The notes beneath the pieces were generated by a model. The model was given only the letters and a program-made list of their open reading frames with translations, ran no database searches and was not told the origin of the DNA. Of a stretch of DNA of 25,264 nucleotides, positions 1 through 23,813 are shown piece by piece. A program made the position numbers and the translations under genes. Source of the DNA: Fidelibacterota bacterium (GTDB taxonomy: Bacteria > Fidelibacterota > Marinisomatia > Marinisomatales > S15-B10). Each line of letters starts with the position of its first letter. Positions within the stretch are counted from its first letter, which is position 1. The DNA is taken from positions 1-25,264 of the forward strand of contig JBHIAI010000013.1 of assembly GCA_046861655.1 (NCBI GenBank). The letters are read 5' to 3'.

Positions 1-1158
1 GCAGACTCCCTTGTTGTCGAATTCTATGTGAGTGGGACCCAATCCGGCGTCTATGTCCCGGGAGACATAGGTCTTATCGATGATTCTTACGCCGAATTCT
101 TCCCCTGTGAACCGTTTTTCGGCGATGGCCTGTCTCACCTTTGTGTAATCGACCATCCTGACGATAGTCGTGGCTTTTCCCCCCACCACAGCGTATCTCC
201 CTGTGGGCGATACATCCACACCGTGAGGGTTCAAAGGACACGGAACGGCATAGACTTCCACATCCCTCCATGAAATAACGGGCACGTCGGGCGCTTCCTT
301 GGTCGTAATGTACTTGCCCTCCTTCACCGCCTGACGGATGCTCTCGATATTCCAGAAGAAAATGTAGTCCTCCGGTCTTTGGAACATCCCCACGACATTC
401 GTGGATCTTTCTGTATTGTAAGCGGTGTTGACAAGCCACCCGTCCATCTCACCCCAGCCCACGCGAACCATGTCGAATTGCCAGGGACCCCACACCTGCC
501 AGGCCGTTTTCATGGTGCCATCCTCTGCGATGTCAACTCCCGTAAGGCAGGAAGCATACGGACCCTTTATTTCATCGATGTCAATGTTGAGGTATTCCCG
601 TATCTCCCTGGCGGGATACTGTTCCAGTTCGATGTTCGCTACGAGCAGGTCCGTGTTGGGACCCACGTGAGCGCCATGGATTCCCCCCTTCACGTTGGGT
701 AGCCAGATGATCTCAGCCGTGCGAAAGGTGGAAAGATCTATCCGGGCCATCCGGGCGTAGGTCTTGTCGTTGATGAAGAGCCATCGGCCGTCGTAGACGC
801 CGTCGGTCTTGCTGATGGCAGGATGGTGGGTATCGCCAGACTGTACCACCTCCCCGGTCCTGGGATTCGTTAACAGTTTCTTGACAAACGGGTTGGACAG
901 GGTCCACCCTGTGGCCGCCGTCGGTTCAAACACGGGGATTTCCTGCAATAGCTTCATGGACGGGATGCTGTAAACGTAAAGCCCACCCTGCTGTCCCCCA
1001 CTGGCGAAAACGTAGAATTCGTCGTTTTTCTGCCAGAACTGGTGGGGCATGGGATAGACTCTCTGGTATGGGTTCACTCCGGACTGTTTCTTCGGGCCAC
1101 AACCGACAAAGAACAGGCCACTCAGTACCAATAGTCCGGCTGTTTTTGTCCACTTCAT
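1..1158 (-). CDS. nosZ: Nitrous oxide reductase (NosZ family), divergent, Sec/lipoprotein signal; N-terminal beta-propeller part only, 3' end runs off the window
   Basis: Manually translated (not in ORF track): ATG at 1158 preceded by AAGGAGG; 386 codons open to position 1. MKWTKTAGLLVLSGLFFVGC (lipobox)...DEFYVFASGGQQGGLYVYSIPSMKLLQEIPVF...GDTHHPAISKTDGVYDGRWLFINDK...ARIDL...GGIHG...YNTE...NPHGVDVSPTG...GLGPTHIEFD. The five CuZ-type His expected in this part are present (H111, H112, H161, H312, H377). Confidence 0.92.
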   Translation of the reverse strand, partial: MKWTKTAGLLVLSGLFFVGCGPKKQSGVNPYQRVYPMPHQFWQKNDEFYVFASGGQQGGLYVYSIPSMKLLQEIPVFEPTAATGWTLSNPFVKKLLTNPRTGEVVQSGDTHHPAISKTDGVYDGRWLFINDKTYARMARIDLSTFRTAEIIWLPNVKGGIHGAHVGPNTDLLVANIELEQYPAREIREYLNIDIDEIKGPYASCLTGVDIAEDGTMKTAWQVWGPWQFDMVRVGWGEMDGWLVNTAYNTERSTNVVGMFQRPEDYIFFWNIESIRQAVKEGKYITTKEAPDVPVISWRDVEVYAVPCPLNPHGVDVSPTGRYAVVGGKATTIVRMVDYTKVRQAIAEKRFTGEEFGVRIIDKTYVSRDIDAGLGPTHIEFDNKGVC

Positions 1159-1194
1159 TTCTGCCTCCTTGTGATTCAATCCATAGACTGCTTC

Positions 1195-1710
1195 TCAAAC
1201 AGCCTCAACAATCAATTTGCCCCGCATCTGGTAGTGGGCCAGACTGCAGAAAACCGTGCATTCGATGGCGAATTCTCCCGGAACGGTGGCTTTGAACGTA
1301 ATCTCCTTTACCACATTCGACCGCAGGCCCGTGACCCAAATGTCGTAGGGGCCCAGAACGTGGAATCCGTGTCCGCTGAACTCTTTCAATCCCGTGATTT
1401 TCGGGAGGTCGCCGTCGTCGCCCCCTTTCAGGACAAGCTTCACGACCTGATTCTGTTTCACACGAATCACGTTCGGTTTGTACTCGGATGTGACCACATC
1501 GATAGTGATGGTGACGTCCGGGTTTCCCAGCGGGTTGGCGGGCTGCCTTGACGGTTCGGAAATCCTCGCGTACGGTCCTGACCATCGTTTCGTCCCGGGG
1601 ACAAACTCTTCTGTTTGAGCCAGCCAGCCGTCCCGTGTACAGGAAATGATACCCAGAAGCAGAATCATCACCACGGTTCCTCGGGCCGCTTTCTCCATCA
1701 TGCTATACAC
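1195..1710 (-). CDS. CuA-type cupredoxin lipoprotein (start may be ATG 1701)
   Basis: Signal peptide ending in lipobox IISC; HGF...CTVFCSLAHYQM = H...CxxxCxxxHxxM CuA ligand set; overlaps/abuts the SCO stop codon. Confidence 0.85.
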   Translation of the reverse strand: MYSMMEKAARGTVVMILLLGIISCTRDGWLAQTEEFVPGTKRWSGPYARISEPSRQPANPLGNPDVTITIDVVTSEYKPNVIRVKQNQVVKLVLKGGDDGDLPKITGLKEFSGHGFHVLGPYDIWVTGLRSNVVKEITFKATVPGEFAIECTVFCSLAHYQMRGKLIVEAV

Positions 1711-2380
1711 CCCCTTCCTGAAGCAAATGCTTGATGTCTTTGACGATTACCTCCTGCGGGTCCACCAATCCGATATACCGGTACCGGACGTTTTCATTCC
1801 TGTCTATCAGGGTCACCATGTAGCTGTGATAGACAAGATCCACACTTCTTTTTTCCTTCACGAAGACCCTGTATGCGTCCCAAACCTCTTGCAGTTCGGA
1901 TTCGCTCCCCGTCAGGAAACGCCACTTCCCTCCAAATCCCCTGGTGTATGCCTTGATCCTCTCCGGAGTGTCCCTTCTCGGGTCGGTAGTGATGAATATC
2001 AACACCAGGTCTTTTTCCACAATATCATTGAACTCCCGCTGAATATGACGGAAGTGCTGAGTCAACAATCCGCAAACATCCGGACAGCTGGTATAGATGA
2101 ATCCGATCAAAACAAGCTTCCCGTCAAAATCGCTTAGCTGGGTGACACCGTTGTCCATATCGGTGAGTGTGAAGTCGAAGGCCTTCCGGGGTTCCAAAAG
2201 TTCAATCCTTCTCACCACCTGTTTCCCGGCGACCTCGGGGTTTTCCAGGGCAGGATGTTCAAAGGTGAAAGTCTCGTTCTCACCTTCCCGGAATTGCTGC
2301 AGGGCCCTGAAGGCCAGAATGAGGACGATAACGACACCGATGACGATCAGGAGATTGAGCCGCGGTTTCATCCCTCGCAC
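1703..2380 (-). CDS. SCO1/SenC/PrrC family copper chaperone, N-terminal membrane anchor
   Basis: DFTLTD...GKLVLIGFIYTSCPDVC (CxxxC), TTDPRRDTPE, downstream His in VYHSYMVTLID; hydrophobic N-terminus. Start GTG 2380 or ATG 2371. Confidence 0.93.
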   Translation of the reverse strand: MRGMKPRLNLLIVIGVVIVLILAFRALQQFREGENETFTFEHPALENPEVAGKQVVRRIELLEPRKAFDFTLTDMDNGVTQLSDFDGKLVLIGFIYTSCPDVCGLLTQHFRHIQREFNDIVEKDLVLIFITTDPRRDTPERIKAYTRGFGGKWRFLTGSESELQEVWDAYRVFVKEKRSVDLVYHSYMVTLIDRNENVRYRYIGLVDPQEVIVKDIKHLLQEGGV

Positions 2381-2764
2381 CTATTCAACAACAACTTCCC
2401 CTTTCATCAGCATATGGTGGTCGCTGCACCACACGGAACAATAGAAAGGAAATCTCCCCTGTACGTCCGGAGTAAACGTTACCCTTTCGACCTCTCCCGC
2501 TTTTACTTCCCTCACCATGATGTCGAAGGCGGGAAGATAGAAGCCGTGCGATACCACGTCAACGTTCCTGATGACGATTCTCACTTTCTCACCCCTGGTC
2601 ACCTGGATGGTCTGGGGAAACCAATTGCCCTTGATGGGTTCGCGAGCGAGGAGTTCGACTGTGTCGGGACTCTCCCGGCTCGACTCATAAGCGAAAACTG
2701 CCCAGAGGGTTCCCAGGGAAACCAGGAGAACCAGAACGACGGCGGCAGTTTCCTGAGCACGCAT
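2381..2764 (-). CDS. Small membrane-anchored CuA-type cupredoxin (127 aa)
   Basis: Start reassigned to ATG 2764 (MRAQETAAVVLVLL..., 5 nt after the upstream stop). DVVSHGF...FYCSVWCSDHHMLMKG = CuA ligand set. Confidence 0.85.
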   Translation of the reverse strand: MRAQETAAVVLVLLVSLGTLWAVFAYESSRESPDTVELLAREPIKGNWFPQTIQVTRGEKVRIVIRNVDVVSHGFYLPAFDIMVREVKAGEVERVTFTPDVQGRFPFYCSVWCSDHHMLMKGEVVVE

Positions 2765-2769
2765 AGGAA

Positions 2770-4641
2770 CTAGGCTACAAACAGACGAACGAAGAAAATG
2801 TGGAGGCCCACGAGAAACGCGACCATGGGAATCCAACCCCTTTTTGCCTCCGCCACCGTGGCATACGTTTGCCTGGAAAACTTGAATCCGTAGTCAAGGG
2901 CAAACATCAATCCGACGATAACCAGGGACACCTGGAGGTAGGGCATTGCCCCGGTCAAAACGGGCGTCCACGGATACTTTGCCGTTCCAAACAGGTTCCA
3001 GCCCCACCCGAAAGGGTCGGATAGAATGTGGAGGAGATAGCTGCCATTGGGCAGGATAATACCGATGCTGAAGGCGCCCCATACCGCAAGGCCAACGGGA
3101 ACAAGACAGTACGAGAAGTTGACGAATGCATCTTTGATCTTGACCTCCTGGTTCTTGCTCAGTTTTCTGGACAGGTACACGAACAGGAGAAATACTGCGG
3201 GGATGAAAAGAAAATCAACGAATGTAGCTTCCGCAAGATAGCTGATATATCCACCCAATGTGGTGGCTCTGACCATATCCTTGAATTCGCCAGCGGGACT
3301 CTGGAACGCTCTGAAGAAGACCAGGAAAATCCCGAGCATGGTCAACGCCTTGAAGGCTTCATCCAACCCCCGCCTTCGAAATTTTCTGTCGGTAGGTTTC
3401 CGCTCAGCGAGGAAGTCGGCACCGAACGGCCTCAGGTTCAACGCCATATTATCGTAAGGACACGTCTTGAAACACTCCATGCACATTCCGCAGTACGTAT
3501 TGCGATTTATGTCGTAGGGCTGCTCCATCCAGGGGCAGCCGTACCCCTTTTCATTCCCCACGACACATGTTTTCGGCTTGTGCTCCTTGCAGATATCCGG
3601 ATCTTTCACGCGAACTTCACAGAGGGAAAAATTCGAATAAAGACCCTGAAACCCGCTTACGGGGCACAGAAAAAGGCAGAAGGTCCGCTTTCCGTAGATG
3701 GCGGCCACGATCGTTGCTGCTCCGATGATGAAGGACAAAAGAAGAAAGGTGGCGAAGGGTCTCACTGTGAAGAAACCGGAAAACCAGGTTGCGACGAAAA
3801 AAAGGATAACCAGGGGCCAGAGATTCCTTACTTCGTTGGGCCATCTCTTATTGAGTCCCCATGACTTCTGGCGTCCCACCTTGATCAGTTTTCCTCGCTG
3901 CAGCCAGTCGCCGAAAAGGGGAAATGGACAGACCATACACCAAAGGCGTCCGATGACAGGAACCATAACAATCATGAGGAGAACCCACCAGAGAATCCAG
4001 ACGATCATGATCCCGAAATTGTAGTTGCCTGCTGAGAGACCGCCCACGAAACCTGCCAGGAGAATGACGGCAAACACGAATAGATTGATGATGATCGGGA
4101 CAAAGGGAAACCACCTGCTCTTGAGTAAGGCGCGAACGGGTCTGTACCGGGTAAGCTCGAATCTTAAGTTCAGCGGTATGAAGCCAAACAACCTGTCGGA
4201 CCCAGCGGGATTGGGGTTCCCCCTTTTCCTGAACGACAGACCCAGGGAACCCAGACCGATGAATGCCACAAGGAAAACGCTGGCATAATACCTGGTGTTG
4301 GGCAGAACCTTCAAATATCCCACCATGTACGGGTGAAACTCCCCGCAAGTTTTTGAACAGCGGAACGTAAACTTCCCGGTCTTGTCAGCGTTGATAACGA
4401 CTTCCCTGGTTTCGCCGGGATTGACGAAGAATTCTGTCCCGTAGCCATCGAGGAAGAATCCGTGGGTGACGTCCTGGCTGATGAGTTTTATGATGAGCCT
4501 GTCGCCCTTACTGGCGGTGATGACGCTCGGGGAATAGGCAAACCGTTTTGCCCTGAGTTCGATGTGCTTGTCCCTGGCGGTGGAGGGTTCCGGGGCGCTC
4601 AGCCCCAGGACAATCACCACTGCCCACAGAATCCTTCTCAC
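2770..4641 (-). CDS. CuA-cupredoxin domain fused to NapH/NosH/MauN-like multi-pass membrane polyferredoxin
   Basis: Likely GTG start 4641 (GTGA overlap with upstream stop, GGGAGA SD). Signal peptide; DVTHGF...CSKTCGEFHPYM; then TM helices with two CxxxCP motifs (WCMVCP, FCLFLCP), CKEHKPKTC...GYGCPW and YCGMCMECFKTCP; further C-terminal TM helices. Confidence 0.85.
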   Translation of the reverse strand: MRRILWAVVIVLGLSAPEPSTARDKHIELRAKRFAYSPSVITASKGDRLIIKLISQDVTHGFFLDGYGTEFFVNPGETREVVINADKTGKFTFRCSKTCGEFHPYMVGYLKVLPNTRYYASVFLVAFIGLGSLGLSFRKRGNPNPAGSDRLFGFIPLNLRFELTRYRPVRALLKSRWFPFVPIIINLFVFAVILLAGFVGGLSAGNYNFGIMIVWILWWVLLMIVMVPVIGRLWCMVCPFPLFGDWLQRGKLIKVGRQKSWGLNKRWPNEVRNLWPLVILFFVATWFSGFFTVRPFATFLLLSFIIGAATIVAAIYGKRTFCLFLCPVSGFQGLYSNFSLCEVRVKDPDICKEHKPKTCVVGNEKGYGCPWMEQPYDINRNTYCGMCMECFKTCPYDNMALNLRPFGADFLAERKPTDRKFRRRGLDEAFKALTMLGIFLVFFRAFQSPAGEFKDMVRATTLGGYISYLAEATFVDFLFIPAVFLLFVYLSRKLSKNQEVKIKDAFVNFSYCLVPVGLAVWGAFSIGIILPNGSYLLHILSDPFGWGWNLFGTAKYPWTPVLTGAMPYLQVSLVIVGLMFALDYGFKFSRQTYATVAEAKRGWIPMVAFLVGLHIFFVRLFVA

Positions 4642-5393
4642 GGTTTCTCCCAACTTAGTTTCCGTAGGATCGCGATAGATTTCCTGGAAAAACTTTCCAT
4701 TCTTCCCCCATCCCAGAGGGCGAAGGCAACGTTGAGGCTTGTCCCCGGCTCGAACTCAAACTCCTCTCCCTGATTGCTATCAAGCCGTCTTTTGAACATA
4801 ACCGACCATTTGCCGTCCCTGTAGTCCCCTTTCCCTTCCACATTCTGTCTTGCCATGGGAGTTTGGGTTCCGGGACCGTGAGCGGTTAGTTCACGGACGG
4901 GGTTCGTCGACGTGTTGCCTTTCAGGTACCGCTCCACATTCCTGTCCGCCAGCCATTGCCAGACATTCGCCTTGTCCCCATACCCCATCATCTGGGCGGT
5001 GGCCGGTGCCTCGGCAAGGGCAAACATTATGGCACAGGCATCGGGATTCACAGGAGGTCCAAGATCCTCGGTTTTGTCGTTGAACTCCAGGAGGAAAGCC
5101 ACCTCTTTCCCGTTGTATGCCGCCCTGACCCAAATATCTTTTTCCTCGTTTCCGTAGGGTGACCTTGCCGATTGAGGATACAGGCGTATCTTCTCGGGTT
5201 CAATACCGTTCCAAAAGGGAGCATGGGGATCAAGATCGAATTCTTTGCCCACGTGAGCAACTGTGAGATTGTCCTTAGTTTCTATTTTCTCCCATTTCAG
5301 GTAAATCATGCGGTACAGGACAGCAAAGTAGACTCCCGCCAGGACAAGGGTGACCGCCAGGGTGTATGAAAGGGTCCTGTGGTGTCTTTTCAT
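4638..5393 (-). CDS. Ethylbenzene dehydrogenase gamma-subunit-like (EB_dh / DOMON) heme-b protein with N-terminal anchor (251 aa)
   Basis: Start reassigned to ATG 5393 (MKRHHRTLSY...) to remove the overlap with rrf2. Motifs VRAAYNGKEVAFLLEFNDKTED, PDACAIMF, QMMG...NVWQW, YRDGKWSVMFKRRL, VAFALWDGG...RKS are typical of EB_dh domains. Confidence 0.8.
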   Translation of the reverse strand: MKRHHRTLSYTLAVTLVLAGVYFAVLYRMIYLKWEKIETKDNLTVAHVGKEFDLDPHAPFWNGIEPEKIRLYPQSARSPYGNEEKDIWVRAAYNGKEVAFLLEFNDKTEDLGPPVNPDACAIMFALAEAPATAQMMGYGDKANVWQWLADRNVERYLKGNTSTNPVRELTAHGPGTQTPMARQNVEGKGDYRDGKWSVMFKRRLDSNQGEEFEFEPGTSLNVAFALWDGGRMESFSRKSIAILRKLSWEKP

Positions 5394-5403
5394 CTGTGAC
5401 CTG

Positions 5404-5883
5404 TCAGCCCCCGCTGTCTGAGTCAACATCCAATTCTCCAGTGTGCATGGAGGCGATGTAATCGAGCTTGGTCTGGATTTCATCACTCAACTCCGTTACC
5501 GGAGTATCCCGTAGCATCTGAATGATGATTTTTTTTGCCGAACTCCACAGGGGGTGCAGTGGACACGGATTCTCGTCCTGACACCCGGGAAATCCAACGA
5601 CACAGTAGTCGAGAAACGATTCACCATCCACGATCTTGGCCACCCGTAAAAGGGATATTTCCTCTGGAGGCTGGCTGAGGAGAAAGCCCCCCGCTTTCCC
5701 TTTCTGGGAGACGACTATGCCATGGCGGGCCAGTTGCTGAAGGATTTTCCCGAGGAAATGGTTTGGGATGTCCAGTGCCTCGGCAATATCTCTCTGCAAT
5801 ATGGGGGTGTCCGGCTGTTGAGCAGCCAGATAGATGACGGACTGAATCGCGTATTGACAGGCCTTGCTGAACAAAACAGACAT
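5404..5883 (-). CDS. Rrf2 family transcriptional regulator with Fe-S ligand motif
   Basis: FSKACQYAIQSVIYLA...IAEALDIPNHFLGKILQQL...SQKGKAGGF (Rrf2 wHTH); CVVGFPGCQDENPCPLH (Cx6Cx5Cx2H). Confidence 0.95.
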   Translation of the reverse strand: MSVLFSKACQYAIQSVIYLAAQQPDTPILQRDIAEALDIPNHFLGKILQQLARHGIVVSQKGKAGGFLLSQPPEEISLLRVAKIVDGESFLDYCVVGFPGCQDENPCPLHPLWSSAKKIIIQMLRDTPVTELSDEIQTKLDYIASMHTGELDVDSDSGG

Positions 5884-5926: not shown

Positions 5927-5956
5927 ATTATACAAAAAAATCCTGAACCATGGCAA
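5927..5956 (-). promoter_or_regulatory. sigma70-type promoter for rrf2-nos cluster
   Basis: Minus strand TTGCCA (5956-5951) - 18 bp - TATAAT (5932-5927) in an AT-rich intergenic gap. Confidence 0.7.
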
Positions 5957-6839: not shown

Positions 6840-7366
6840 ATTCTTTCCTCACCGCCATCTTTCATGTTCTGGTACCTGGCGGCGACGAAAAGAAAGTCGG
6901 ACAATCGATTCACGTAGGAGAGGGTGACCTCGCTGATGGGCTCAGACTTGTTCAGAGTTACAAGATTCCGCTCCGCCCTCCGGCAGACGGATCTTGCGTG
7001 GTGAAGTTGGGCCGACACGGGGGATCCTCCCGGCAGAACAAATTCCTTCAAGGGGGGCAAAGATTCGTTCCAGCCGTCCAGGGTCCTTTCCAGCCAGTCC
7101 ACGTCATCTTGGGATATCAGATGCATTTTCCGGTCCTTCACCGCCAGCTCTCCTCCCAGATTGAACAGGGTGTTTTGAACTCGCCGAAGGGGTTCGGTCA
7201 GATCTCCTGCAGCGCTGTGGGCCAGGGCAACCCCGATGGAGGAACTGATCTCATCCAGGGAACCAAGCACCCGGATCCGCGGCGAGTCTTTGTCTACCCG
7301 TTCCCCCCTGGCCAGAGAGGTCGTACCATCATCGCCGGTCCGGGTGTATACTTTGGTGATTCTCAC
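6827..7366 (-). CDS. pduO: PduO-type ATP:cob(I)alamin adenosyltransferase (179 aa)
   Basis: True start GTG 7366 (GTGA overlap with nuoN stop; GGAGG SD): VRITKVYTRTGDDGTTSL...RVDKDSPRI...GSLDE...QNTLFNLGGELA...FVLPGG...ARSVCRRAER...YVNRLSDFLFVAARY. Confidence 0.95.
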   Translation of the reverse strand: MRITKVYTRTGDDGTTSLARGERVDKDSPRIRVLGSLDEISSSIGVALAHSAAGDLTEPLRRVQNTLFNLGGELAVKDRKMHLISQDDVDWLERTLDGWNESLPPLKEFVLPGGSPVSAQLHHARSVCRRAERNLVTLNKSEPISEVTLSYVNRLSDFLFVAARYQNMKDGGEERMWER

Positions 7367-8817
7367 AGAAAAACCTCCGCTGCTTTCATGGCTCCGGTCA
7401 GCAGCAAGCTGGGGTTCACGCCTAATCCGATGACAACCGCTGCCAGAACCGCCAGAAGGAAGGCCGTCTTGCGCAGGACGAATGTGGGCAAGGCAACCTC
7501 CTCTTCCTCCATATACATCTGAACGATGATGCGCACGTAATAGTATACGGAAATCAGGGTTGTTAGGACAGCAATGACCGTAAGCCAGATGTACCCCTGG
7601 TGTACCGCGGCTGAGAAAACCGCATACTTGGCCACAAACCCTGCCGTGGGGGGAAATCCCGCCAGTGAAATCATGAACAGGGCAAGACACGCGGCCAGCC
7701 ACGGATGCCGGGAAGCCAGTCCCCTGTAGTCGTTCAAGTTCACCCCCCTTTCCCCCTTCTCTACCAGGGAAATCCCGGCGAAGGCACCGAAATTCATGGC
7801 ACAATAGACAGCCAGATAGAAAAGAACTCCGGATACTCCCCCTTCGTCCAGGACCACCACGCCCATAAGAAGATATCCGGCATGGGCCACACTGGAAAAG
7901 GCCAGCATACGCTTCACGTTGGATTGCAAAAGGGCGCTCACGTTCCCCACGACCATGGTGAGAGCAGCGAGGACCCAGAGCAGATCCTGCCAGGCACCCA
8001 CCCGGTCCGGGAAGGCTACCAGCAAGACCTTTATGAGAGTCCCGAAACCCGCTGCCTTGGGGGCGGTAGCCAGAAAGGCCGTTACAGTCGTCGGTGCCCC
8101 CTGGTACACATCCGGAGACCACATGTGAAAGGGCACCAGGGCAACCTTGAAGGCAAACCCGATGAGCACAAGCCCTATCCCCAGTGACAGAATCGTTCCC
8201 GACAGAATCTTTCCTGCAGAAAGAGCCGCCGCGATCTGGTCAAAGTTTGTGCTGCCTGTGGCTCCAAAGACCAGGGCGGCTCCGAATACAAAGAACCCGG
8301 TAGTGAAGGCTCCCAGAAGAAGATACTTAACGCCCCCTTCGTTGCTCGCAGCATCATGACGAAGGAATCCGATGAGGACGTACAGGGACAAGGACAGCAG
8401 TTCCAGGCCCAGAAAGACCATGACCAGGTCGTTGGCCCGGGTCATGAACATCATGCCCATGGTGGCAAACAGGGTGAGGGCGTAGTACTCACCCCTCAGT
8501 TCCCCCTCTTTTCGTTCCAGATACCTCTGGGCCACGAGCAGGGCGGCCGTCCCTACCCCAAGATAGAGCAGGTCGAAGAAGGCCGTATAGCTGCTCAACG
8601 AGAGCATCCCGCTGAAGAGAACCTGCTCCTGACCGAAGGTCCTGACCACGAAGTATGCGGCCCCTGCGTATCCGGCCAGACCCACAGGCAGCATGATCCG
8701 CCTCAAGGATCTTGACACCATCTCCAGGGTCAGAATGGCGAGGCAGGTCGCCAGAAGAACGATCTCTGGAAGAATCCCCCTGAAATCCGACGCCCCCGGG
8801 ATAAAGATAACGTCCAT
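7363..8817 (-). CDS. nuoN: NADH-quinone oxidoreductase subunit N (second operon)
   Basis: LGLELLSLSLYVL, EGGVKYLLLGA, FKVALVPFHMWSPDVYQGAPT, QSNVKRMLAFSSVAHAGY, SLAGFPPTAGFVAK. Confidence 0.96.
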   Translation of the reverse strand: MDVIFIPGASDFRGILPEIVLLATCLAILTLEMVSRSLRRIMLPVGLAGYAGAAYFVVRTFGQEQVLFSGMLSLSSYTAFFDLLYLGVGTAALLVAQRYLERKEGELRGEYYALTLFATMGMMFMTRANDLVMVFLGLELLSLSLYVLIGFLRHDAASNEGGVKYLLLGAFTTGFFVFGAALVFGATGSTNFDQIAAALSAGKILSGTILSLGIGLVLIGFAFKVALVPFHMWSPDVYQGAPTTVTAFLATAPKAAGFGTLIKVLLVAFPDRVGAWQDLLWVLAALTMVVGNVSALLQSNVKRMLAFSSVAHAGYLLMGVVVLDEGGVSGVLFYLAVYCAMNFGAFAGISLVEKGERGVNLNDYRGLASRHPWLAACLALFMISLAGFPPTAGFVAKYAVFSAAVHQGYIWLTVIAVLTTLISVYYYVRIIVQMYMEEEEVALPTFVLRKTAFLLAVLAAVVIGLGVNPSLLLTGAMKAAEVFL

Positions 8818-8839
8818 CTTATCTCAATTGAACCTGGAC

Positions 8840-8941
8840 AATGAAGAATACAGAATGGAGAGTGCAAAATGGAAGATGCAGAATGCAACGTGCAAAACTG
8901 TCCCCAGTTCTCCAGTACTCCATTACTCCATCTCTCCATTT
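8840..8941. repeat. Adjacent degenerate tandem arrays: 8 x 7-mer (AATGCAR-like) and 5 x 8-mer (CTCCAKTW-like)
   Basis: 8840-8895: AATGAAG AATACAG AATGGAG AGTGCAA AATGGAA GATGCAG AATGCAA CGTGCAA; 8902-8941: CCCCAGTT CTCCAGTA CTCCATTA CTCCATCT CTCCATTT. Confidence 0.85.
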
Positions 8942-8948
8942 TCCCCCG

Positions 8949-10322
8949 TCACAAGAAAAACACCCATGTGACCAGCACAAAAATGGGAATCAAAATGGGC
9001 AGAGAGTATTTCACCATGTACCCGAAGAAACTGGGCATGGGGATGTCCATTTCCCGGGCGATGGATCTCACCATAAAGTTTGGGGCGTTTCCCACATACG
9101 TATTCGCTCCCATGAATACGGCCCCGGCGGAAATGGCCAACAGAGTTCCCGCCAGGTCGGTCATGAGAAGGTTGGGGTCTCCCCCTGCCGTGTTGAAAAA
9201 CACCAGGTAAGTGGGAGCGTTGTCAAGAAAGCTCGATAGAGCGCCCGTGGTCCAGAAATAGGTGGCATTTACGGGGTTTCCCTCGGGTGTGGACACCGCC
9301 CCGATGATGGCCCTGAGGGCACCGTGCTCTCCAGCCCTCAGGATGGCGATCGCTGGAATGATGGTGACGAAAATGCCGGCGAAGAGTTTTGCCACCTCCA
9401 CGATGGGAAACCAGCTGAACTCGTTTCTTTCCCGAATCTCCCGGGCCGTCACCTTCCAGCTCACGTAGGCAAAAAACAGAAGGAGCACATCCCTCATCAA
9501 GTCCTGCAGATGGATCTCCACGTGGTAAACTTCGAAGGAAACCGGGGAATGCCACAATCCGCTCAACAACACAGAACCGATGGCACCCAGCAGGATCAAC
9601 AGGTTTATGCCTCCCTCCATCCCTAGTTTCTCGGGGTTATCCCCGTTCTCCCCGGGGTCGGGCCTGTTCGTTTCCCGTCTGTAATAGTAGGTGTCGACAG
9701 CATAGAATACCACCCAGAGAATACCGATCACCAGGAGCATAGGTTCAAGCATGGCCCTGGTGGTCCAGAAAAAATCGATCCCGTTCAGAAACCCCAGGAA
9801 AAGGGGGGGATCGCCCAGGGGGGTCAGGGAACCGCCGATATTGGCAACCAGAAAGATGAAGAAAATCACAACATGAACATTCTTCTCCCGCCACCGGTTG
9901 GCACGGATGATGGGGCGTACAAGAAGCATGGCGGCGCCCGTGGTCCCCATCCAGCTGGCCAGAACCGTTCCCACCACCAGGATGGCAAGATTCAGAGGAG
10001 GAGTCCCCGTCAAGGATCCGGTGATTCTCACTCCTCCCGCGATCGTGAACAGGGCCAGAAGCAGGATGATGAAGGGGACGTACTCAAGGAGCCCCACGTC
10101 AACCAGTTCAAAAACCACCACATCCAAACCGTACTTGAGGCTCATGGGAACAATCAACACCGCTGCCCAAAAGGCCGCTACTTTGCCGTAGTGGCGATGC
10201 CAGAACCGGGGAGCCAGCAGGGGCAAGACGGCGATGGAAAGAAGTATGCAGAGAAAGGGAATCACCCAGGGAAGCCCCAGCACTGAACCGTCCATGTGAG
10301 GGATATCCACAGGATGCTCCAT
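8949..10322 (-). CDS. IT-superfamily (ArsB/NhaD-like, CitMHS_2-type) putative Na+/H+ antiporter or anion transporter
   Basis: Many TM helices; ASWMGTTGAAMLL, ANIGGSLTPLGDPPLFLGF, LSSFLDNAPTY, GAVFMGANTYVGNAPNFMV motifs; ATG directly follows the nuoM TGA. Confidence 0.85.
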   Translation of the reverse strand: MEHPVDIPHMDGSVLGLPWVIPFLCILLSIAVLPLLAPRFWHRHYGKVAAFWAAVLIVPMSLKYGLDVVVFELVDVGLLEYVPFIILLLALFTIAGGVRITGSLTGTPPLNLAILVVGTVLASWMGTTGAAMLLVRPIIRANRWREKNVHVVIFFIFLVANIGGSLTPLGDPPLFLGFLNGIDFFWTTRAMLEPMLLVIGILWVVFYAVDTYYYRRETNRPDPGENGDNPEKLGMEGGINLLILLGAIGSVLLSGLWHSPVSFEVYHVEIHLQDLMRDVLLLFFAYVSWKVTAREIRERNEFSWFPIVEVAKLFAGIFVTIIPAIAILRAGEHGALRAIIGAVSTPEGNPVNATYFWTTGALSSFLDNAPTYLVFFNTAGGDPNLLMTDLAGTLLAISAGAVFMGANTYVGNAPNFMVRSIAREMDIPMPSFFGYMVKYSLPILIPIFVLVTWVFFL

Positions 10323-11870
10323 TCAATCGCCTCCCGGGACCGTCATCGTCCACACCGGATCATTCTCACCGGACCGGTCTACCGCCATCTCGACCTGACG
10401 GACCAGCCTGTCCACTGACGGTTCAATCTTCTCCAGAAAGGGCTTGGGATAAACACCGAGCCACACGATGGCCAGAACAAGGGGAATCACCGCCGCCCAT
10501 TCCCTGGGGACCAGGTCCACCAGTTTGGCATTCTCCTCCCGGGTGACGGGTCCAAAAAACACCCGTTCCACAAGCCAAAGAAGGTAAACAGCGGCCAGGA
10601 CCACCCCCAGGGTGGCCAGGACCACCGCCACCGGATGAACGGGAAAGGACCCCAGAAGAATGAGGAATTCTCCCACGAAGCCGTTCAGGCCCGGCAGTCC
10701 AAGGGAAGCCAGGGCCACCACGATAAAGAGGGCGCTGTAGGCAGGGATCACCTTTGCAAGGCCCCCGAAATCCTGGATCATCCGCGTGTGGCGTCGGTCA
10801 TACAGCATGCCAACAAGGAGAAACAGGGCACCGGTAGAGAGACCGTGGTTAACCATCTGAATGATGCCCCCGGAAATGCTCTTGGAGGTGAGGGAAAAGA
10901 TGCCCAGGACCACGAATCCCAGGTGACTCACGCTTGAGAAGGCCACCAAACGTTTTATGTCGGGTTGGATCATGGCCATGAGAGCACCGTAGATAATCCC
11001 AAACACAGAAAGAAAGATGATCACCGGTACCAGAGGGGGAATGGCAAGAGGAAAGAGGGGAACGCAGAACCTGACCAGACCGTACGCCCCCATTTTCAAC
11101 AGGATCCCTGCCAGGATGATGGATCCCGCGGTGGGAGCATCGGAATGGGCATCGGGAAGCCAGGTGTGAAAGGGGAACAACGGCACCTTGATGGCAAAAC
11201 TGAGGGCAAAAGCCAGAAAAAGCAGGGTCTGGACCTTGCGGGAGATCACAAGATCTTGAAGGGTCTCATAATCCAGGGTGGGAGAGCCAAACTGAGAGGT
11301 GGTGAGTGTATAGAGGTAGATGATCCCCACAAGCATCAGGAGGGACCCCAGCATGGTAAACAGGATGAACTTGACGGCTGAATATATCCTCCTGTCCGTT
11401 CCCCACACTCCGATGATAAGGGTCATGGGAATGAGCACGGCTTCCCAGAAGATGTAAAACAGGAATAGATTGATGGAGGAGAACACCCCAACCAGGGCCC
11501 CTTCCGTGATGAGAAGGGAAACCATGAATCCCTTAACTCCCCTGGTGATGCAATCCCATGAACACAGGACCGTAACCGGACCGAGGAACGTCGTGAGAAG
11601 GATGAGAAGCAAACTGATGCCGTCGACCCCCACCGAATAGTTGATCGCCCATTCCGGAATCCATGGAACCTGCTGGACAAACTGAAAGTCGCTGGTCGAT
11701 TCAAACCGGACGGTCATGATGACACAAAGGCCGAGTTCAAGAACGGTAATGGCAACCGCAATCCACTTCGCCACGCTCCCGTGGCGGGAAGGGACGGCTG
11801 CGCACAACAGGGCCCCCGCCACAGGCAGGAGGATAAGCACCGTCAGACTGTGGTCGATTACCCAGGTCAT
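10323..11870 (-). CDS. nuoM: NADH-quinone oxidoreductase subunit M (second operon)
   Basis: GVDGISL, FYIFWEAVLIP, KVPLFPFHTWLPDAHSDAPTAGS, LLKMGAYG, QMVNHGL, LGLPGLNGFVGEF. Confidence 0.97.
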   Translation of the reverse strand: MTWVIDHSLTVLILLPVAGALLCAAVPSRHGSVAKWIAVAITVLELGLCVIMTVRFESTSDFQFVQQVPWIPEWAINYSVGVDGISLLLILLTTFLGPVTVLCSWDCITRGVKGFMVSLLITEGALVGVFSSINLFLFYIFWEAVLIPMTLIIGVWGTDRRIYSAVKFILFTMLGSLLMLVGIIYLYTLTTSQFGSPTLDYETLQDLVISRKVQTLLFLAFALSFAIKVPLFPFHTWLPDAHSDAPTAGSIILAGILLKMGAYGLVRFCVPLFPLAIPPLVPVIIFLSVFGIIYGALMAMIQPDIKRLVAFSSVSHLGFVVLGIFSLTSKSISGGIIQMVNHGLSTGALFLLVGMLYDRRHTRMIQDFGGLAKVIPAYSALFIVVALASLGLPGLNGFVGEFLILLGSFPVHPVAVVLATLGVVLAAVYLLWLVERVFFGPVTREENAKLVDLVPREWAAVIPLVLAIVWLGVYPKPFLEKIEPSVDRLVRQVEMAVDRSGENDPVWTMTVPGGD

Positions 11871-13774
11871 CTCAGGAAAAGATAGAAGATCATCAGAACC
11901 ACCCCTGCCAGAAAAACGACCGCATAGGTTTGAACGACTCCGGTTTGCACCCGCCGGAGTCTTCCTGACAGCGCTCCCATGAATTTCCCTGAACCGTTCA
12001 CCAGTCCGTCAACGACCCGAATATCAAACGCCCTCCACACCCATTCGCTGGATCTTCGCACAGGTTGCACAAACAGGACGTCGTAAATCTCGTCCACGTA
12101 GTATTTCCTGGACACCAGGGTATGGAGCACCGTGAACCTGCCGGCGACTTTTCCAGGAAGGTCGGGACGTCTCTGGTAAAGAAAAAAGGCCAGTCCGATG
12201 CCTGCCGCAGCCGCCACGATAGAGAACATCATCACCATCCATTGGGGAGTCAGGGTCTCCCTTCCCAGGGCGATGACCAGCCCGGCTCCATCGGGGGCCG
12301 AATGGTGAACGAACTCACGAAACGGGTTGCCCAACCCCAGGAATTCAGGGAGGCCCACGTACCCCCCGAATACCGCCAGAAGGGCAAGAGTGATCAGAGG
12401 GGCGGTCATGACCGGACGGGCGTCGCGGGGCGCAGTCTCCCGGTCCCAGCGGGCCTGACCATGGAAGGTCAGGAACAACAAACGGAACATGTACAGGGCG
12501 GTAAGGACAGCTGTTGCCAATCCCAGGAGGTACAGGAATCTCCCGGTCCCTTGCCAGGCGTAGAGACTCCACAGGATTTCATCCTTTGAGAAGAATCCGG
12601 ACAGGAGTGGAACACCGGAAATGGCCCCTACACCTGCCAGCATGGACAGGTATGTTCGGGGCATGGAAGACTTGAGGTCGCCCATTTTCCTCATGTCCTG
12701 GTGTCCTCCCAGGGCATGAATGACCGAGCCTGCCCCGAGAAACAAGGTGGCCTTGAAGAAGGCGTGGGTCACCAGGTGAAACAGTCCCGCCGCGTAGGCT
12801 CCCATCCCCACGGCGGTGATCATGGTTCCTAACTGGCTTATGGTGGAATAAGCCAGCACTTTCTTGATATCATTTTCCGTCACTGCCATAGTAGCCGCGA
12901 GAAAGGCCGTGACCGTCCCCACGATGGTGATCACCGCGACGGTGACGGCCGAAGCGGAAAAAAGAACACCCAGCCGTGCGATCAGATAGACACCGCCCGT
13001 CACCATGGTGGCGGCATGGATCAGGGCACTCACGGGCGTGGGACCGGCCATGGCGTCGGGGAGCCAGACATACAGGGGGATCTGGGCCGATTTTCCTACC
13101 GCACCCAGGAACAGCAAAAGGCCCATGGCAGTGACGATCTGGGGTCGCAGCAGGGCGATCCTTTCCGGGACGAGGATTTCTGAGAATTCAAGGGATCCAA
13201 ACCGGGAGAATATGAGAAACATGGCCAGAAGGAATCCCGCGTCCCCCACGCGGTTTACGATGAACGCTTTCTTTCCCGCCGCTGCCTTTTCCCGGTCCTC
13301 GAACCAGTGACCGATCAGCAGGTATGAGCAGAGGCCGACCCCTTCCCATCCTACGAACAGGAGGACCAGATTGTCTGCCATCACCAGGGTCAGCATCATG
13401 AAAGTGAACAGGTTCAGAAACGCGAAATACCGCTGAAAGCCCCGGTCCCCTTTCATGTAGCCCATAGAGTAGACATGAATCAGGCATCCCACCCCCGTCA
13501 CCACCAGGACCATGATCAGCGAAACCGAATCGAGAAGGTAGGAGACGGAGATCTGGAGGTCTCCTACCCACAGCCAGGTGAAAAGCGATTGACGAAGAGG
13601 TTCGTGGGTGTTCAGGACGCTTCCGAATAGAATCGTTCCCAGCACAAAGCTCAACCCCACGGAAACGGACCCAATCAAGCCCGAGGCTTTCTCGCTCAAT
13701 CTCTTTCCCAAGAGTCCATTGAGCAGAAAGCCCGCCAGGGGAAATCCCGGGATCAGCCAGATCACAGAATCCAT
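11867..13774 (-). CDS. nuoL: NADH-quinone oxidoreductase subunit L
   Basis: GWEGVGLCSYLLIG, KAFIVNRVGD, GKSAQIPLYVWLPDAMAGPTPVSALIHAATMV, HAFFKA, KYYVDEIY. Confidence 0.97.
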   Translation of the reverse strand: MDSVIWLIPGFPLAGFLLNGLLGKRLSEKASGLIGSVSVGLSFVLGTILFGSVLNTHEPLRQSLFTWLWVGDLQISVSYLLDSVSLIMVLVVTGVGCLIHVYSMGYMKGDRGFQRYFAFLNLFTFMMLTLVMADNLVLLFVGWEGVGLCSYLLIGHWFEDREKAAAGKKAFIVNRVGDAGFLLAMFLIFSRFGSLEFSEILVPERIALLRPQIVTAMGLLLFLGAVGKSAQIPLYVWLPDAMAGPTPVSALIHAATMVTGGVYLIARLGVLFSASAVTVAVITIVGTVTAFLAATMAVTENDIKKVLAYSTISQLGTMITAVGMGAYAAGLFHLVTHAFFKATLFLGAGSVIHALGGHQDMRKMGDLKSSMPRTYLSMLAGVGAISGVPLLSGFFSKDEILWSLYAWQGTGRFLYLLGLATAVLTALYMFRLLFLTFHGQARWDRETAPRDARPVMTAPLITLALLAVFGGYVGLPEFLGLGNPFREFVHHSAPDGAGLVIALGRETLTPQWMVMMFSIVAAAAGIGLAFFLYQRRPDLPGKVAGRFTVLHTLVSRKYYVDEIYDVLFVQPVRRSSEWVWRAFDIRVVDGLVNGSGKFMGALSGRLRRVQTGVVQTYAVVFLAGVVLMIFYLFLR

Positions 13775-13775
13775 G

Positions 13776-14081
13776 TCAATCCTTCAACAGGCTAATTTCA
13801 TCTATGGTGATGGTGCGCCGGTTGCGGAACAGGGCCACGATGATACCGAGACCTACCGCTACCTCGGCAGCCGCCAGAGTCATCACGAGAAACACGAACA
13901 CCTGGCCGCTGACGCTGTCGTAATACCGGGAGAAGGCCACCAGGGCCAGGTTGGCGGCATTGAGCATCAGTTCGATGGACATGAAGATGACAATAGCGTT
14001 CCTGCGAAACAGCACTCCCAGGACGCCGATGGAAAACAGCAAACCGCTCAAGGCGATGACCTGTTCCAGAGGGACGGTCAT
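13776..14081 (-). CDS. nuoK: NADH-quinone oxidoreductase subunit K
   Basis: [33 protein letters not shown]. Confidence 0.97.
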
Positions 14082-14581
14082 GAAACCTTCCTTTTTGCCA
14101 GATACACGGTTCCGATGAGAGCCACCAAAAGAAGCAGGGAAGCGACTTCAAACGGGAAGAGGTAGGTGGAAAACAGGACTTCCCCCACCGCGGTCACACT
14201 TCCGGACGTGATGGATTCCCCGGGGGAATGAGGGATATCCATCCCCTGGATGAGGAATATGGTAACGCCGGAAAAGAAAAGGAGAATAAGAAAAAGAGAA
14301 AAGACCCTTTGAACGGTGATCAGCTTTGGAACGGCTTCCTCCCTGCCCACATTGAGCAACATGATAACGAACAGGAAAAGGACCATGATGGCCCCGGCGT
14401 AGATGAGGATTTCCAGTACGGCCAGGAAATAGGCCTCCAGAAGTAGGTACAGAACGGAAAGGGAGAAAAAGGTACCCACCAGAAAGATAGCGCTGTGGAC
14501 GGGATTCTTGTTGAGAACGACCAGGAGTGCGCACACAAGGGTGACAACCGAGGCGATGTTGAACAGAAGGTCAGGCGACAT
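14078..14581 (-). CDS. nuoJ: NADH-quinone oxidoreductase subunit J
   Basis: [43 protein letters not shown]. Confidence 0.96.
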
Positions 14582-14604
14582 ACGCGATCCAGGCGTGGGA
14601 TATC

Positions 14605-15135
14605 TTAATCGTTTTCAGAGACTCCCTCCGGCACCTTCCCCGATGGTGTTTTGTAGTAGTTTTCCCCCTTGGTCAGTTCATAGACCGCCAGCAATCCTTC
14701 CTTGTCAATCCAGAGGCCTTCCCGGGTATGGTGAGAGAAGTCGTAGATTTCGGTCAATTCGATGGCTTCCTCGGGGCAGGCGATTTCACAGAATCCGCAG
14801 AAGATACACCGCAACAGATCAATATCGAAACGAACGGGATACCTCTCCTTTCCCTCCTCCCAGGGAGAGGGACCGGGCACGATATGGATACAGTGGGCCG
14901 GACAAGCGGCCGCGCACATGTCACAGGCCACGCACCGAATGCGCCCGTCCTCATACTTGTTCAGACGATGGAGGCCTCTGTACCCTTCCGGGGGTACGTG
15001 CTTTTCCTCAGGGTATTGGACAGTGACAGATCTTCTGACCAGGTGCTTGAAGGTGACCACGAGGCCTCTGAAAAGGGCGGGCAGGTACAGCTTGTCCCAG
15101 AAGGATGGTTCGTAGGATTTGACGATCGTCCCCAT
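14605..15135 (-). CDS. nuoI: NADH-quinone oxidoreductase subunit I
   Basis: TVQYPEE...YRGLH; CVACDMCAAACP and CIFCGFCEIACP (2x[4Fe-4S]). Confidence 0.96.
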   Translation of the reverse strand: MGTIVKSYEPSFWDKLYLPALFRGLVVTFKHLVRRSVTVQYPEEKHVPPEGYRGLHRLNKYEDGRIRCVACDMCAAACPAHCIHIVPGPSPWEEGKERYPVRFDIDLLRCIFCGFCEIACPEEAIELTEIYDFSHHTREGLWIDKEGLLAVYELTKGENYYKTPSGKVPEGVSEND

Positions 15136-15139
15136 GGTT

Positions 15140-16168
15140 TTAGGAGCGCAGGACCAGATAGCCGCCGGTGACCAGAATGTTAACCAGAGCCAGGGGAAGC
15201 ATCACTTTCCATCCCAGTCTCATGAGTTGATCATACCGGAACCTTGGGAAGGTCCACCTGACCCACACGTAAAGAAAAAGGAATAGGCCCACTTTTGCCA
15301 CAAAACCCAGGGCGGAAAGCAGTCCACCCAGATTGCCCAGAGTGGCCTCGTTCACAAATGGGATATCCCATCCTCCGAAGAACAGGGTAACCATGAGCGC
15401 AGATGCGGTTATCATGTTGGCGTATTCGGAAAGCATGAACATGGCGAATTTCATGCTGCTGTATTCGGTGTGGTATCCCCCGACCAGTTCCTGTTCTGCC
15501 TCGGTGAGGTCAAAGGGGAGACGGTTCGTTTCCGCGTAGGTGGCGATGAGGAATATGACGAACGCCAGCGGCTGCTTGAACACATTCCAGGAAAGCAGTC
15601 CACCCTGCTGCGCGGAAACCATGTCATTGAGTCTCAAAGATCCCGCCAGGAGAACCACACTGACCACCGCCAGACCCAGGGCCAGTTCATAACTTATCAT
15701 TTGGGCGGCAGACCTGAGTCCACCCAGAAGGGGATACTTGCTATTCGAGGCCCATCCCGCCAGGACAATGCCGTAGACCCCCACACTGGTGAGAGCCAGA
15801 ACATAGAGTATGCCCACGTTAACGTCTGCCACCTGCAGAGGAATATCTCTCCCGAAAAGATGGATGGGACTGCCAAAGGGGATCACCGCGAAAGTCATGA
15901 GCGCAGGGACAAGGAGGATGACCGGGGCCAGGAGGTAGACGGGCCTATCCACACCGGCCGGGATGATGTCTTCCTTCATCATGAACTTTACTCCATCGGC
16001 CAGGGGCTGAAGGATTCCCCCGGGCCCCACCCGGTTGGGCCCCAGGCGGTCCTGAATGAACGCCGACACCCGTCTTTCGATATAGGTCATGGCCATGACG
16101 GCAAACAATACAGCAGCCAGGACCGCCACCACTTTGACACAGATGATGATAAACAGAAGAAGATCCAC
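15140..16168 (-). CDS. nuoH: NADH-quinone oxidoreductase subunit H
   Basis: ERRVSAFIQDRLGPNRVG, QPLADGVK, LRSAAQMISYE, AETNRLPFDL.EAEQELVGGYHTEYS, PRFRYDQLM. Confidence 0.97.
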   Translation of the reverse strand: MDLLLFIIICVKVVAVLAAVLFAVMAMTYIERRVSAFIQDRLGPNRVGPGGILQPLADGVKFMMKEDIIPAGVDRPVYLLAPVILLVPALMTFAVIPFGSPIHLFGRDIPLQVADVNVGILYVLALTSVGVYGIVLAGWASNSKYPLLGGLRSAAQMISYELALGLAVVSVVLLAGSLRLNDMVSAQQGGLLSWNVFKQPLAFVIFLIATYAETNRLPFDLTEAEQELVGGYHTEYSSMKFAMFMLSEYANMITASALMVTLFFGGWDIPFVNEATLGNLGGLLSALGFVAKVGLFLFLYVWVRWTFPRFRYDQLMRLGWKVMLPLALVNILVTGGYLVLRS

Positions 16169-17793: not shown

Positions 17794-17799
17794 GGCGCG

Positions 17800-19119: not shown

Positions 19120-19607
19120 AAGAGGGAACCCAGCAGAGAGTCGAACTCTTCCAGAGTCAGGCTTTCGTGATAGTCGTTATTGACCTGTACCACGGGCGCC
19201 GTGCCGCAGGAACCCAGGCATTCCACCTTCCGGAGGGTAATCTTGCCATCAGACGTGGTTTCCCCTGGCCGTATTCCCAGCTTCATGCAGGCATGATCAA
19301 CCAGGGCATCGGCACCGTTGAGGCTGCAGGAAAGTGTCTGGCAGATTTGAACCCTGGCCCTCCCCTGCGGTTCCCGATGAAACAGGGTATAGAAAGATAC
19401 CACGTCTATGATCTCGGCCGGATGACATCCCACGATTCCGGCCACCGCTTCCACAACACCCCTGGAGATGTATCCCAGCTGATCCTGGGCCAGATGAAGG
19501 AGCGGGAGAGTGGCGGACCGCCGGTCCGGATAGAGGGATACCATCCGCTCCACCCTGGAGGGGTTTTCAAACTCGAACCGACCGTCGTCGCCGGATGACG
19601 CTGTCAC
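19116..19607 (-). CDS. nuoE: NADH-quinone oxidoreductase subunit E
   Basis: LPLLHLAQ..GYI, VVSFYTLF, CQTLSC...ECLGSC [2Fe-2S] motif. Confidence 0.96.
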   Translation of the reverse strand: MTASSGDDGRFEFENPSRVERMVSLYPDRRSATLPLLHLAQDQLGYISRGVVEAVAGIVGCHPAEIIDVVSFYTLFHREPQGRARVQICQTLSCSLNGADALVDHACMKLGIRPGETTSDGKITLRKVECLGSCGTAPVVQVNNDYHESLTLEEFDSLLGSLL

Positions 19608-21330: not shown

Positions 21331-21407
21331 TTAGGTGGCGGGAGCGTGGAAGTAGGAGTGCAGGGTTCGAACAGAATCGAATCTACAAGCCAAAAGATGA
21401 GGCGATT

Positions 21408-21878
21408 TCAAGGCGCGACCCCCTTTTGGATGGACCGCTGCAGTTTCAGCAGGCCGTCCAGGACACCTTCCGGCCGGGGGGGACACCCGGGGACATACAT
21501 ATCCACGGGGATGAATTGATCCACCCCCTGAATCACGCTGTAGGTATCGAACACACCCCCGCTGGAAGCACAAGCGCCCATGGATATCACCCATTTGGGT
21601 TCAGGCATCTGCTCATAGATCCGGGTGAGTACAGGCATCAGTTTAATGGTGATTCTGCCCGCCACGATGAGAAGATCGGATTGGCGGGGCGAGAACCGAA
21701 TGGCCTCGGCACCGAACCGGGCAATGTCAGATCGGGCCGCCAGCAATGCCATGAGCTCGATCCCGCAGCAGGCCGTGCCGAAGGGCATGGGCCACAGGGA
21801 ATTCTTTCTGCTCCAGCGGATAGCCCCTTTCAGGGTGGTGGTCAAAACGTTGGATTTGATGTCGCCTGTCACTCCCAT
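21408..21878 (-). CDS. nuoB: NADH-quinone oxidoreductase subunit B
   Basis: [45 protein letters not shown]. Confidence 0.97.
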
Positions 21879-23807: not shown

Positions 23808-23813
23808 GGGGCT

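Follow-up and report, generated by a model that had tools for sequence, protein, structure and literature searches.

The window, a 25,264-nucleotide stretch of DNA from a Fidelibacterota bacterium, is a whole contig (G000:C171, G000 being the source genome) and carries at one edge the first 386 codons of a gene for a putative copper-dependent nitrous oxide reductase (NosZ). We propose, with a probability of roughly 0.6, that this protein belongs to a separate NosZ lineage, most likely the sister of clade II, whose members are predicted to be active and to need neither NosD nor NosL for maturation and electron supply. Judged from sequence and a structural model, the family behaves as an N2O reductase in every test, yet it fails the HMM of each named clade. 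Three NosZ clades are recognised (available text of PMC13685413; PMC13477213). A bolder reading, which we hold tentatively and at somewhat under even odds, is that of an undescribed fourth clade of active N2O reductases. Such a clade would have been transferred across bacterial phyla and to an archaeon, would assemble CuZ without NosD and NosL, would draw on a dedicated CuA cupredoxin donor, and would have been missed by NCBI naming and by clade II primers.

Gene reconstruction and metal ligands

The gene runs from position 1158 to position 1 on the minus strand, and its translation is free of stops over 386 codons. It is absent from the list of open reading frames because the contig end cuts the frame, and it appears when open ends are allowed. 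The initial annotation had reported a 386-codon frame missed by the ORF track; this is borne out, and the omission is mechanical. The motifs DTHH, GIHG, NPHG and GPTH and the three further segments that it quoted are all present letter for letter. Its strong Shine-Dalgarno sequence corresponds to AAGGAGG, 6 bases ahead of the ATG, and the twin-arginine motif is missing as it had stated; instead, the N-terminus carries a lipoprotein-type Sec signal, a call that is a regular-expression pattern check only. The 386-residue fragment matches solved N2O reductases at E 2.5e-48, which is beyond chance, and a Pfam search with it gave no match. The two halves of the gene in the source genome score 282 bits (the window fragment) and 202 bits on the clade II profile TIGR04246, and the fragment scores 63 bits on the clade III profile NF052460. 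The features of the window and of the second contig are collected in Table 1.

Table 1. Features of the nosZ-like locus; positions refer to the window unless another contig or locus is named.
Position	Strand	Feature	Basis
1..1158	-	nosZ-like gene, codons 1-386 of 635; propeller; CuZ His 111, 112, 161, 312, 377	translation, profiles, alignment
1099..1158	-	lipoprotein-type Sec signal peptide, lipobox FVG-C20, no twin arginine	regular expression
823..828	-	CuZ His111-His112 (DTHH)	alignment
676..678	-	CuZ His161 (GIHG)	alignment
223..225	-	CuZ His312 (NPHG)	alignment
28..30	-	CuZ His377 (GPTH), mismatched target site of primer nosZ-II-F	alignment
1165..1171	-	Shine-Dalgarno AAGGAGG	sequence
1195..1710	-	cupredoxin with full CuA-type motif (His ... 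CxxFCxxxHxxM), directly upstream of nosZ	family search, motif
1703..2380	-	SCO1/SenC copper chaperone (CxxxC)	PF02630 E 7e-29
2381..2836	-	second CuA-type cupredoxin, likely start near 2764 (homolog length)	family search
2770..4653	-	membrane polyferredoxin (Fer4_5; weak NapH/MauN match) fused to N-terminal CuA-type cupredoxin	
4638..5486	-	EB_dh / DMSO-reductase type II gamma-like heme b protein, likely start near 5393	PF09459 E 4e-29; TIGR03477 below cut-off
5404..5883	-	Rrf2-family regulator heading the gene run	family search
5927..5956	-	sigma-70-like promoter match TTGCCA-18-TATAAT (11/12), upstream of the Rrf2 gene	consensus match
ending at 6827		presumably cobalamin adenosyltransferase-like frame	
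7363-25257		presumed complex I (nuo) operon	
8949-10322		presumed Na+/H+ antiporter-like gene between nuoM and nuoN	
22314-25257		presumed further nuoM/nuoN-like pair	
L024:793-2307 (G000:C150)		transglutaminase-like domain (Cys + His motifs) fused to TlpA thioredoxin (WCGRC), directly after nosZ	
C150:2285-2857		nosB-like membrane gene	locus comparison

The initial annotation had advised retrieval of the full gene, which was recovered across two contigs of the source genome. The missing C-terminal half was located on G000:C150 through relatives with 76-77% identity. The full gene consists of window 1158..1 (-), 6 bases absent from the assembly, and G000:C150:34-774, and its product has 386 + 2 + 247 = 635 residues. 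Contigs of the public runs X1 and X3 that cover C150 have a loose end before base 34, which repeats the last 24 bases of the window frame with one mismatch, a one-base difference in the window's last codons, plus 6 extra bases. These contigs bridge the window end to C150:34 in frame, and the gene is therefore continuous. Runs X1 and X3 are hydrothermal-vent metagenomes from a single study, and the assembly itself may derive from them. A search of sequencing runs listed the gene in four DNA runs, all of one study, and in no RNA run. The frame stops at a contig edge and bases 1-33 of C150 (L024:1-33), which resemble a wrongly joined contig end, are foreign to nosZ, as a truncated pseudogene or an assembly artefact would have it, but the in-frame join of both halves in the X1 and X3 contigs refutes this reading. 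Full-length relatives with 75-80% identity, and a GC3 of 0.68 that is similar to that of the nuo genes, also argue against it, and its probability is negligible.

Over the two contigs, the gene encodes all seven CuZ His, the Lys/Glu pair and the CuA ligands. Five of the CuZ His lie on the window. The last two (His 6 and 7) and the C-terminal CuA motif, which the initial annotation had left to be checked, were found on C150, where the CuA ligands are His, Cys, Cys, His and Met. A ligand census covered 76 full-length family proteins, with proteins under 560 residues left out. All seven CuZ His are present in 65 of them, the Lys/Glu pair in all 76 (aligned to Pseudomonas mandelii NosZ), and the CuA residues H/C/W/C/H/M in every one that covers that region. 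The ligands are intact in all 16 full-length genome loci of the family. The accessible part of PMC13685413 ties Lys397/Glu435 to N-O cleavage in N2OR. An AlphaFold model of P0002, a relative with 79% identity, has a pLDDT of 90, and its best structural matches are N2O reductases (TM 0.79; Z 47, rmsd 2.6 over 545 residues), the next fold reaching Z 34.7. As modelled, the family has a seven-bladed propeller and a C-terminal cupredoxin fold.

Eleven of the 76 full-length members (P0015, P0017, P0062, P0067, P0070, P0074, P0075, P0077, P0078, P0079 and P0081) lack 1-6 of the CuZ His and keep the CuA ligands where covered. The longest contigs of P0015 and P0008 are equally long, as are those of P0067 and P0038, which hints at a degenerate copy beside an intact copy, and the two may be heterodimer partners in which the degenerate one donates CuA. 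A Spirochaetaceae copy (L003:5213-7174) has an in-frame TAA at codon 357 and keeps all ligands on either side of it. The CuZ-degenerate members and this one in-frame stop point to relaxed selection in parts of the family. The CuZ-degenerate members are also natural controls.

Family extent and phylogenetic position

The window gene is part of a distinct family that counts some 80 protein clusters and spans several phyla and one archaeon. A homolog search returned 82 clusters (P0002-P0083, some partial) with 47-92% identity to the window protein, after which identity drops to 41% or less and to ordinary clade II proteins, as seen in the best 120 of 1365 relatives. Further searches added the basal members P0122, P0270 and P0441. 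According to named genome records, its members occur in Fidelibacterota (Marinisomatota), Spirochaetota, Planctomycetota, Chloroflexota, Thermaerobacter, Thiogranum and one archaeon, and the homolog search adds one Acidobacteriota protein. One Fidelibacterota record is of the same genus as the source genome. The habitats include vents and groundwater, water from deep mines, and marine low-oxygen water. No nosZ homolog besides the family gene is present in 19 of 21 family genomes (G298, G185 and G187 were left out as duplicates of G001, G002 and G004). A Thermaerobacter MAG (G010; loci L010, L019 and L088) has two family copies with 73% identity together with a canonical clade II nosZ and nosD. 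A metagenome scan (alignment A2) found none of the family among the at least 80 loci listed, which were dominated by clade II and were reused as extra clade II sampling. A plasmid search returned only clade I and II genes at identities under 60%, and a search of the ESM Atlas returned NosZ clusters only.

Profile scores set the family apart from each named clade. The initial annotation had proposed scoring against the HMMs of the three clades, and all 26 full-length members scanned, about a third of those found, lie below all three NCBIfam cut-offs. They score 430-601 bits on TIGR04246 (clade II; cut-off 625), 312-497 on TIGR04244 (clade I; 625) and 77-199 on NF052460 (clade III; 700). Ordinary clade II proteins score 899-912 bits on TIGR04246 (8/8). 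All 13 NCBI-named family hits are called 'hypothetical' or 'cupredoxin domain-containing', and at JGI 18 of the 82 family hits bear the name 'nitrous-oxide reductase'.

The trees took clade I and haloarchaeal references from named plasmids, clade II references from genomes and searches, and clade III references from sequences around P0305 of Desulfitobacterium nosdiversum. NosZ of Pyrobaculum, Ferroglobus and Aquificota are usually placed in clade II. The trees contained no sequence named as one of these, and no hit ranked above clade II for a basal member bore one of these names. Two IQ-TREE trees (LG+C20; 54 and 36 rows) recover the family as monophyletic (100/100) and clade II without the family likewise (100/99), and the two are joined at 94/80 and 96/88 over a branch of 0.08. 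A FastTree of 253 rows gathers 199 clade II-type rows in one clade (99) with the family as its sister (86). AU tests on the 36 rows, with groups picked after the BLAST results and trees had been seen, rejected a grouping of the family with the clade II subgroup that it matches best by BLAST (p-AU 4.5e-5) and with either half of clade II (p-AU 0.004 each). Placing the family outside both clades I and II, or with clade I, was not rejected (p-AU 0.114 each), and the sister relation to clade II is therefore not significant.

The family is thus monophyletic and lies outside the sampled clades I, II and III, and it is probably the sister of clade II. Since this is the preferred place, the choice between a 'new clade' and a 'deepest clade II-type branch' is partly one of naming. 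Mean identity of the family is 36.8% to clade II, 33.6% to clade I and 28.3% to clade III. Clades I and II share 37.2%, which means that the family is about as distant from clade II as clade I is. The idea of a deep-branching N2O reductase, possibly a new lineage, had been raised by the initial annotation, and it is supported by the monophyly, the position outside sampled clade II and the retained ligands. The phylogeny that it had suggested did not find the family nested within clade II, and the AU tests rejected such nesting.

Neighbouring genes and predicted maturation

The strongest feature of the family, absent from the initial annotation, is that by gene content nosD and nosL appear to be replaced by a conserved set of cupredoxin, SCO and thiol-reductase genes. 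nosD (TIGR04247) was not found in the source genome, which is 92.8% complete, and lies above cut-off in 2 of 21 family genomes (2 of 20 besides the source genome). Both of these (G010 and G019) have a second, canonical nosZ, and its contig has the nosD match. Among clade II control genomes, 30 of 31 have nosD (29/29 and 1/2). nosL occurs in only one of the 21 family genomes, namely that which carries a clade I gene, versus 13 of 13 controls. Completeness, available for 4 of the 21 family genomes, is about 93-94%. None of nosR, nosD and nosL lies near a family nosZ, and no shared ABC gene cluster lies near the family loci. A NosY query matched 0 of 7 controls as well and is uninformative. Some family genomes have weak TIGR04247 matches, with a best E of 6e-18 and in ORFs of 81-3890 residues; these are far below cut-off and were rejected as nosD.

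In the source genome, no nirS-type match was found; a short multicopper oxidase gives a NirK-like match over part of its length, and pieces of a heme-copper oxidase lie on C67 and C152. A locus away from nosZ (L025, G000:C35:1455-3913) has a second run of cupredoxin, NosH-like polyferredoxin and COX2-type cupredoxin genes, and its polyferredoxin is 41% identical to that of the window. Another (L170, G000:C112:1-3779) combines an Rrf2 gene with genes for a cytochrome c/heme b protein and for a NarG/Nxr-like alpha subunit of DMSO-reductase type II, for which nitrate or nitrite chemistry is possible.

A CuA cupredoxin, the hallmark of the family, lies directly upstream of nosZ in all 20 other family genomes, including that of the basal type (G020) and the archaeon. 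A nosB-like gene follows nosZ in 18 of 20 loci, and the remaining two loci end first. SCO is found in 15 of 20 loci, plus G020. The transglutaminase-like/TlpA fusion is found in 7 of 20 and a DsbD-like membrane protein in 10 of 20, never together; the DsbD-like label is based on a single Pfam hit together with a CxPC motif, seen in 3 of the 5 proteins inspected. That the transglutaminase-TlpA protein takes part in the delivery of sulfur or copper is purely speculative. A NosH-like polyferredoxin occurs in 5 of 20 loci, a clear match to the heme b protein (EB_dh) in 4 of 20, and an Rrf2 regulator in 3 of 20, plus G020. Promoter-like matches, which are consensus matches only, number 7 in the sites found versus 3.8 expected. 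The gene context suggests that the upstream CuA cupredoxin is likely the electron donor, and the polyferredoxin-CuA fusion is a candidate quinol-oxidising input. Modelling of NosZ (alignment A1) in complex with this cupredoxin scored 0.00 and gave no verdict.

N2OR forms head-to-tail dimers: CuA of one subunit feeds CuZ of its partner, and a lysine gives the proton (available parts of PMC13685413 and PMC11828985). On this known chemistry, the family protein would form a lipid-anchored head-to-tail dimer outside the cytoplasmic membrane, and electrons passing from CuA of one subunit to CuZ of the other would reduce N2O to N2. Judging by gene context, the path to this dimer would lead from quinol to the NosH-like membrane Fe-S protein with the CuA domain fused to it, then to the upstream CuA cupredoxin and the CuA of NosZ. 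SCO would load copper, and the TlpA or DsbD-like protein would keep the CuA cysteines reduced. Loading of CuA sites by SCO and a thiol reductase has an analogy in cytochrome oxidase assembly. The NosB-like membrane protein would be retained from clade II, and CuZ would be assembled by some NosD-independent route. This last step is weakened by the studied systems, in which loss of nosD, nosF or nosY leaves N2OR without CuZ (available text of PMC13685413). Clade III is also without nosDFYL (same text; PMC13477213), and the ABC components in its clusters are described there as possible stand-ins (PMC13685413, in the part available). By gene content, then, the absence of nosD and nosL is shared with clade III and is not diagnostic.

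NosDFY are held essential in clades I and II. The family bears on how CuZ is assembled and on the source of its sulfide. With a canonical seven-His site and a small, different helper set, a NosD-independent route would be directly testable through one compact operon.

Known systems, alternative readings and detection

The family shares with clade II NosZ (TIGR04246; Deinococcus ficus, Carboxydochorda, Desulfitobacterium) the propeller and CuA architecture, the seven CuZ His, Sec-type export, a NosH-like Fe-S protein (in the 5 of 20 family loci) and a nosB-like gene downstream, whose product is 27% identical to that of Deinococcus. It differs from clade II in its profile scores, in an identity of about 37%, in having no nosD or nosL, in having SCO and TlpA or DsbD-like genes, and in a CuA motif that reads CxWFCSELHxEM where clade II has Cx[NDE]FCSALHQEM. 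The gene directly upstream is a CuA cupredoxin in the family and a cytochrome c in clade II, and the Deinococcus ficus pDFI2 cluster (L074) reads cytc-nosZ-nosB-nosD-nosY-nosF. The departure of GLGPTHIEFD from the usual sequence, pointed out in the initial annotation, holds against 44 clade II genes, of which 42 read LGPLHT and 2 AGPLHT; its other two segments deviate as well, and clade II proteins such as P0091 read SGGHSG and DLxxAGKGxSxGW. Clade I NosZ (TIGR04244; structures 1QNI, 3SBP and 1FWX) has the same fold (Z 47), His spacing, CuA Trp and Lys/Glu second sphere. It is set apart by its profile and by the mean identity given above, by the twin-arginine pattern, present in only 1 of 81 family N-termini, and by nosR, nosD and nosL, none of which is near the family genes. 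DPANN nosZ-like proteins of oxygen-deficient zones are likewise divergent, CuA-bearing and from marine low-oxygen water, but as described in the available part of PMC10936187 they are without the CuZ site that the family has.

That the protein is an N2O reductase on no more than a long branch within clade II, where it may have been counted before (as 'sequence-divergent' NosZG7 or NosZG8 of cold seeps, for instance), is unlikely in our view. The clade II profile is the best one for the family, the Sec-type signal and nosB-like neighbour are those of clade II, trees prefer the sister position, and some family hits carry the enzyme's name at JGI; yet all 26 scanned members stay under the cut-off that ordinary clade II proteins clear, and nesting was rejected in all three AU tests on groups chosen as described. 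The CuA Trp is as in clade I, not the Asn, Asp or Glu of clade II, and nosD and nosL are absent, although both clades share nosDFYL according to the available text of PMC11828985. The same text files the divergent groups NosZG7 and NosZG8 in clade II; set against the family by description only, they may overlap with it. The available parts of PMC12569097, PMC13122619, PMC11148229 and PMC10359470 name no such lineage, and six family WGS prefixes are absent from the available supplements of PMC12569097. A literature search, with most subscription papers outside it, found no description of the lineage and no evident NosZ 'clade IV'; the family sequences may already be included in published trees.

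Another reading, which we consider improbable, is a NosZ-derived copper enzyme with another active site (for example, one without the bridging sulfide) or another substrate, nosD and nosL having been lost as canonical CuZ was no longer built. It would account for their absence, for the residues changed next to His5 (LH-T to TH-I in the core family), for the 11 CuZ-degenerate members and for the canonical nos system that G010 and G019 also retain. It does not sit well with the conservation, across phyla, of the seven His and of the Lys/Glu pair assigned to N-O cleavage (PMC13685413, in its available part), with the retained nosB-like gene, or with clade III, which likewise does without nosDFYL. 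Membership of clade III itself, the lactonase-type L-NosZ (NF052460), or a close relation to it had been entertained in the initial annotation and is refuted, so that we consider it highly improbable. The missing nosD and nosL, the CuA domain, a Sec or lipoprotein-type signal and a Glu two residues upstream of the His6 blade motif (column E467), which most clade I and II rows lack, are common to both groups. Against this, the 386-residue fragment scores 63 bits and full-length members 77-199 bits on NF052460, where P0305 scores 915; mean identity is 28%, and a 100/100 branch separates the two in the IQ-TREE trees. The family protein is also about 100 residues longer than P0305 and has the full DTHH pair where clade III has His-Glu. 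Its neighbours are cupredoxin, SCO, NosB-like and thiol-reductase genes, and those of clade III are b-type cytochromes and ABC/MacB genes (PMC13685413, available text). The preferred reading remains a separate, predicted-active NosZ lineage.

Clade II primers are mismatched to the family. The forward primer nosZ-II-F (sequence from the available part of PMC5902568) has 3-5 mismatches, including the 3' base, in all 18 scored family genes, a count made without L010, L014, L019 and the G020 gene, whose site the pattern did not match. In 44 of 44 clade II genes it has 0-2 mismatches and none in the last five bases. The best site of the reverse primer has 4-6 mismatches in all 20 family genes versus 0-1 in 43 of 44 clade II genes. 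The basal members P0122 and P0441 retain LGPLHT, and the mismatch is a property of the core family. To our knowledge, NosZ is the only enzymatic sink for N2O. Given its names at NCBI and the mismatched clade II primers, the family would be an uncounted N2O sink, if active. Its global weight may be small because it is rare: it was found in 4 of 301 sampled genomes of its own phylum, versus 36 with clade II, and in 2 of 401 Chloroflexota genomes, versus 14.

Other NosZ-like lineages were seen alongside the family. P0302/P0139 (Thermincola) is a NosZ of 455 residues with all CuZ His and no CuA domain, and P0143 has CuA and no CuZ ligands; these could be halves of a split enzyme. The P0126/P0293 lineage (L167:7444-13016) is a Sec-type NosZ lineage grouping with clade I and scoring under both HMM cut-offs. 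Its locus has an upstream cupredoxin and nosB-like and DsbD-like genes, as in the window family, plus nosD, an intermediate cluster layout. P0147, a NosZ-like protein of 527 residues, branches between clade III and all others and scores 415 bits on NF052460.
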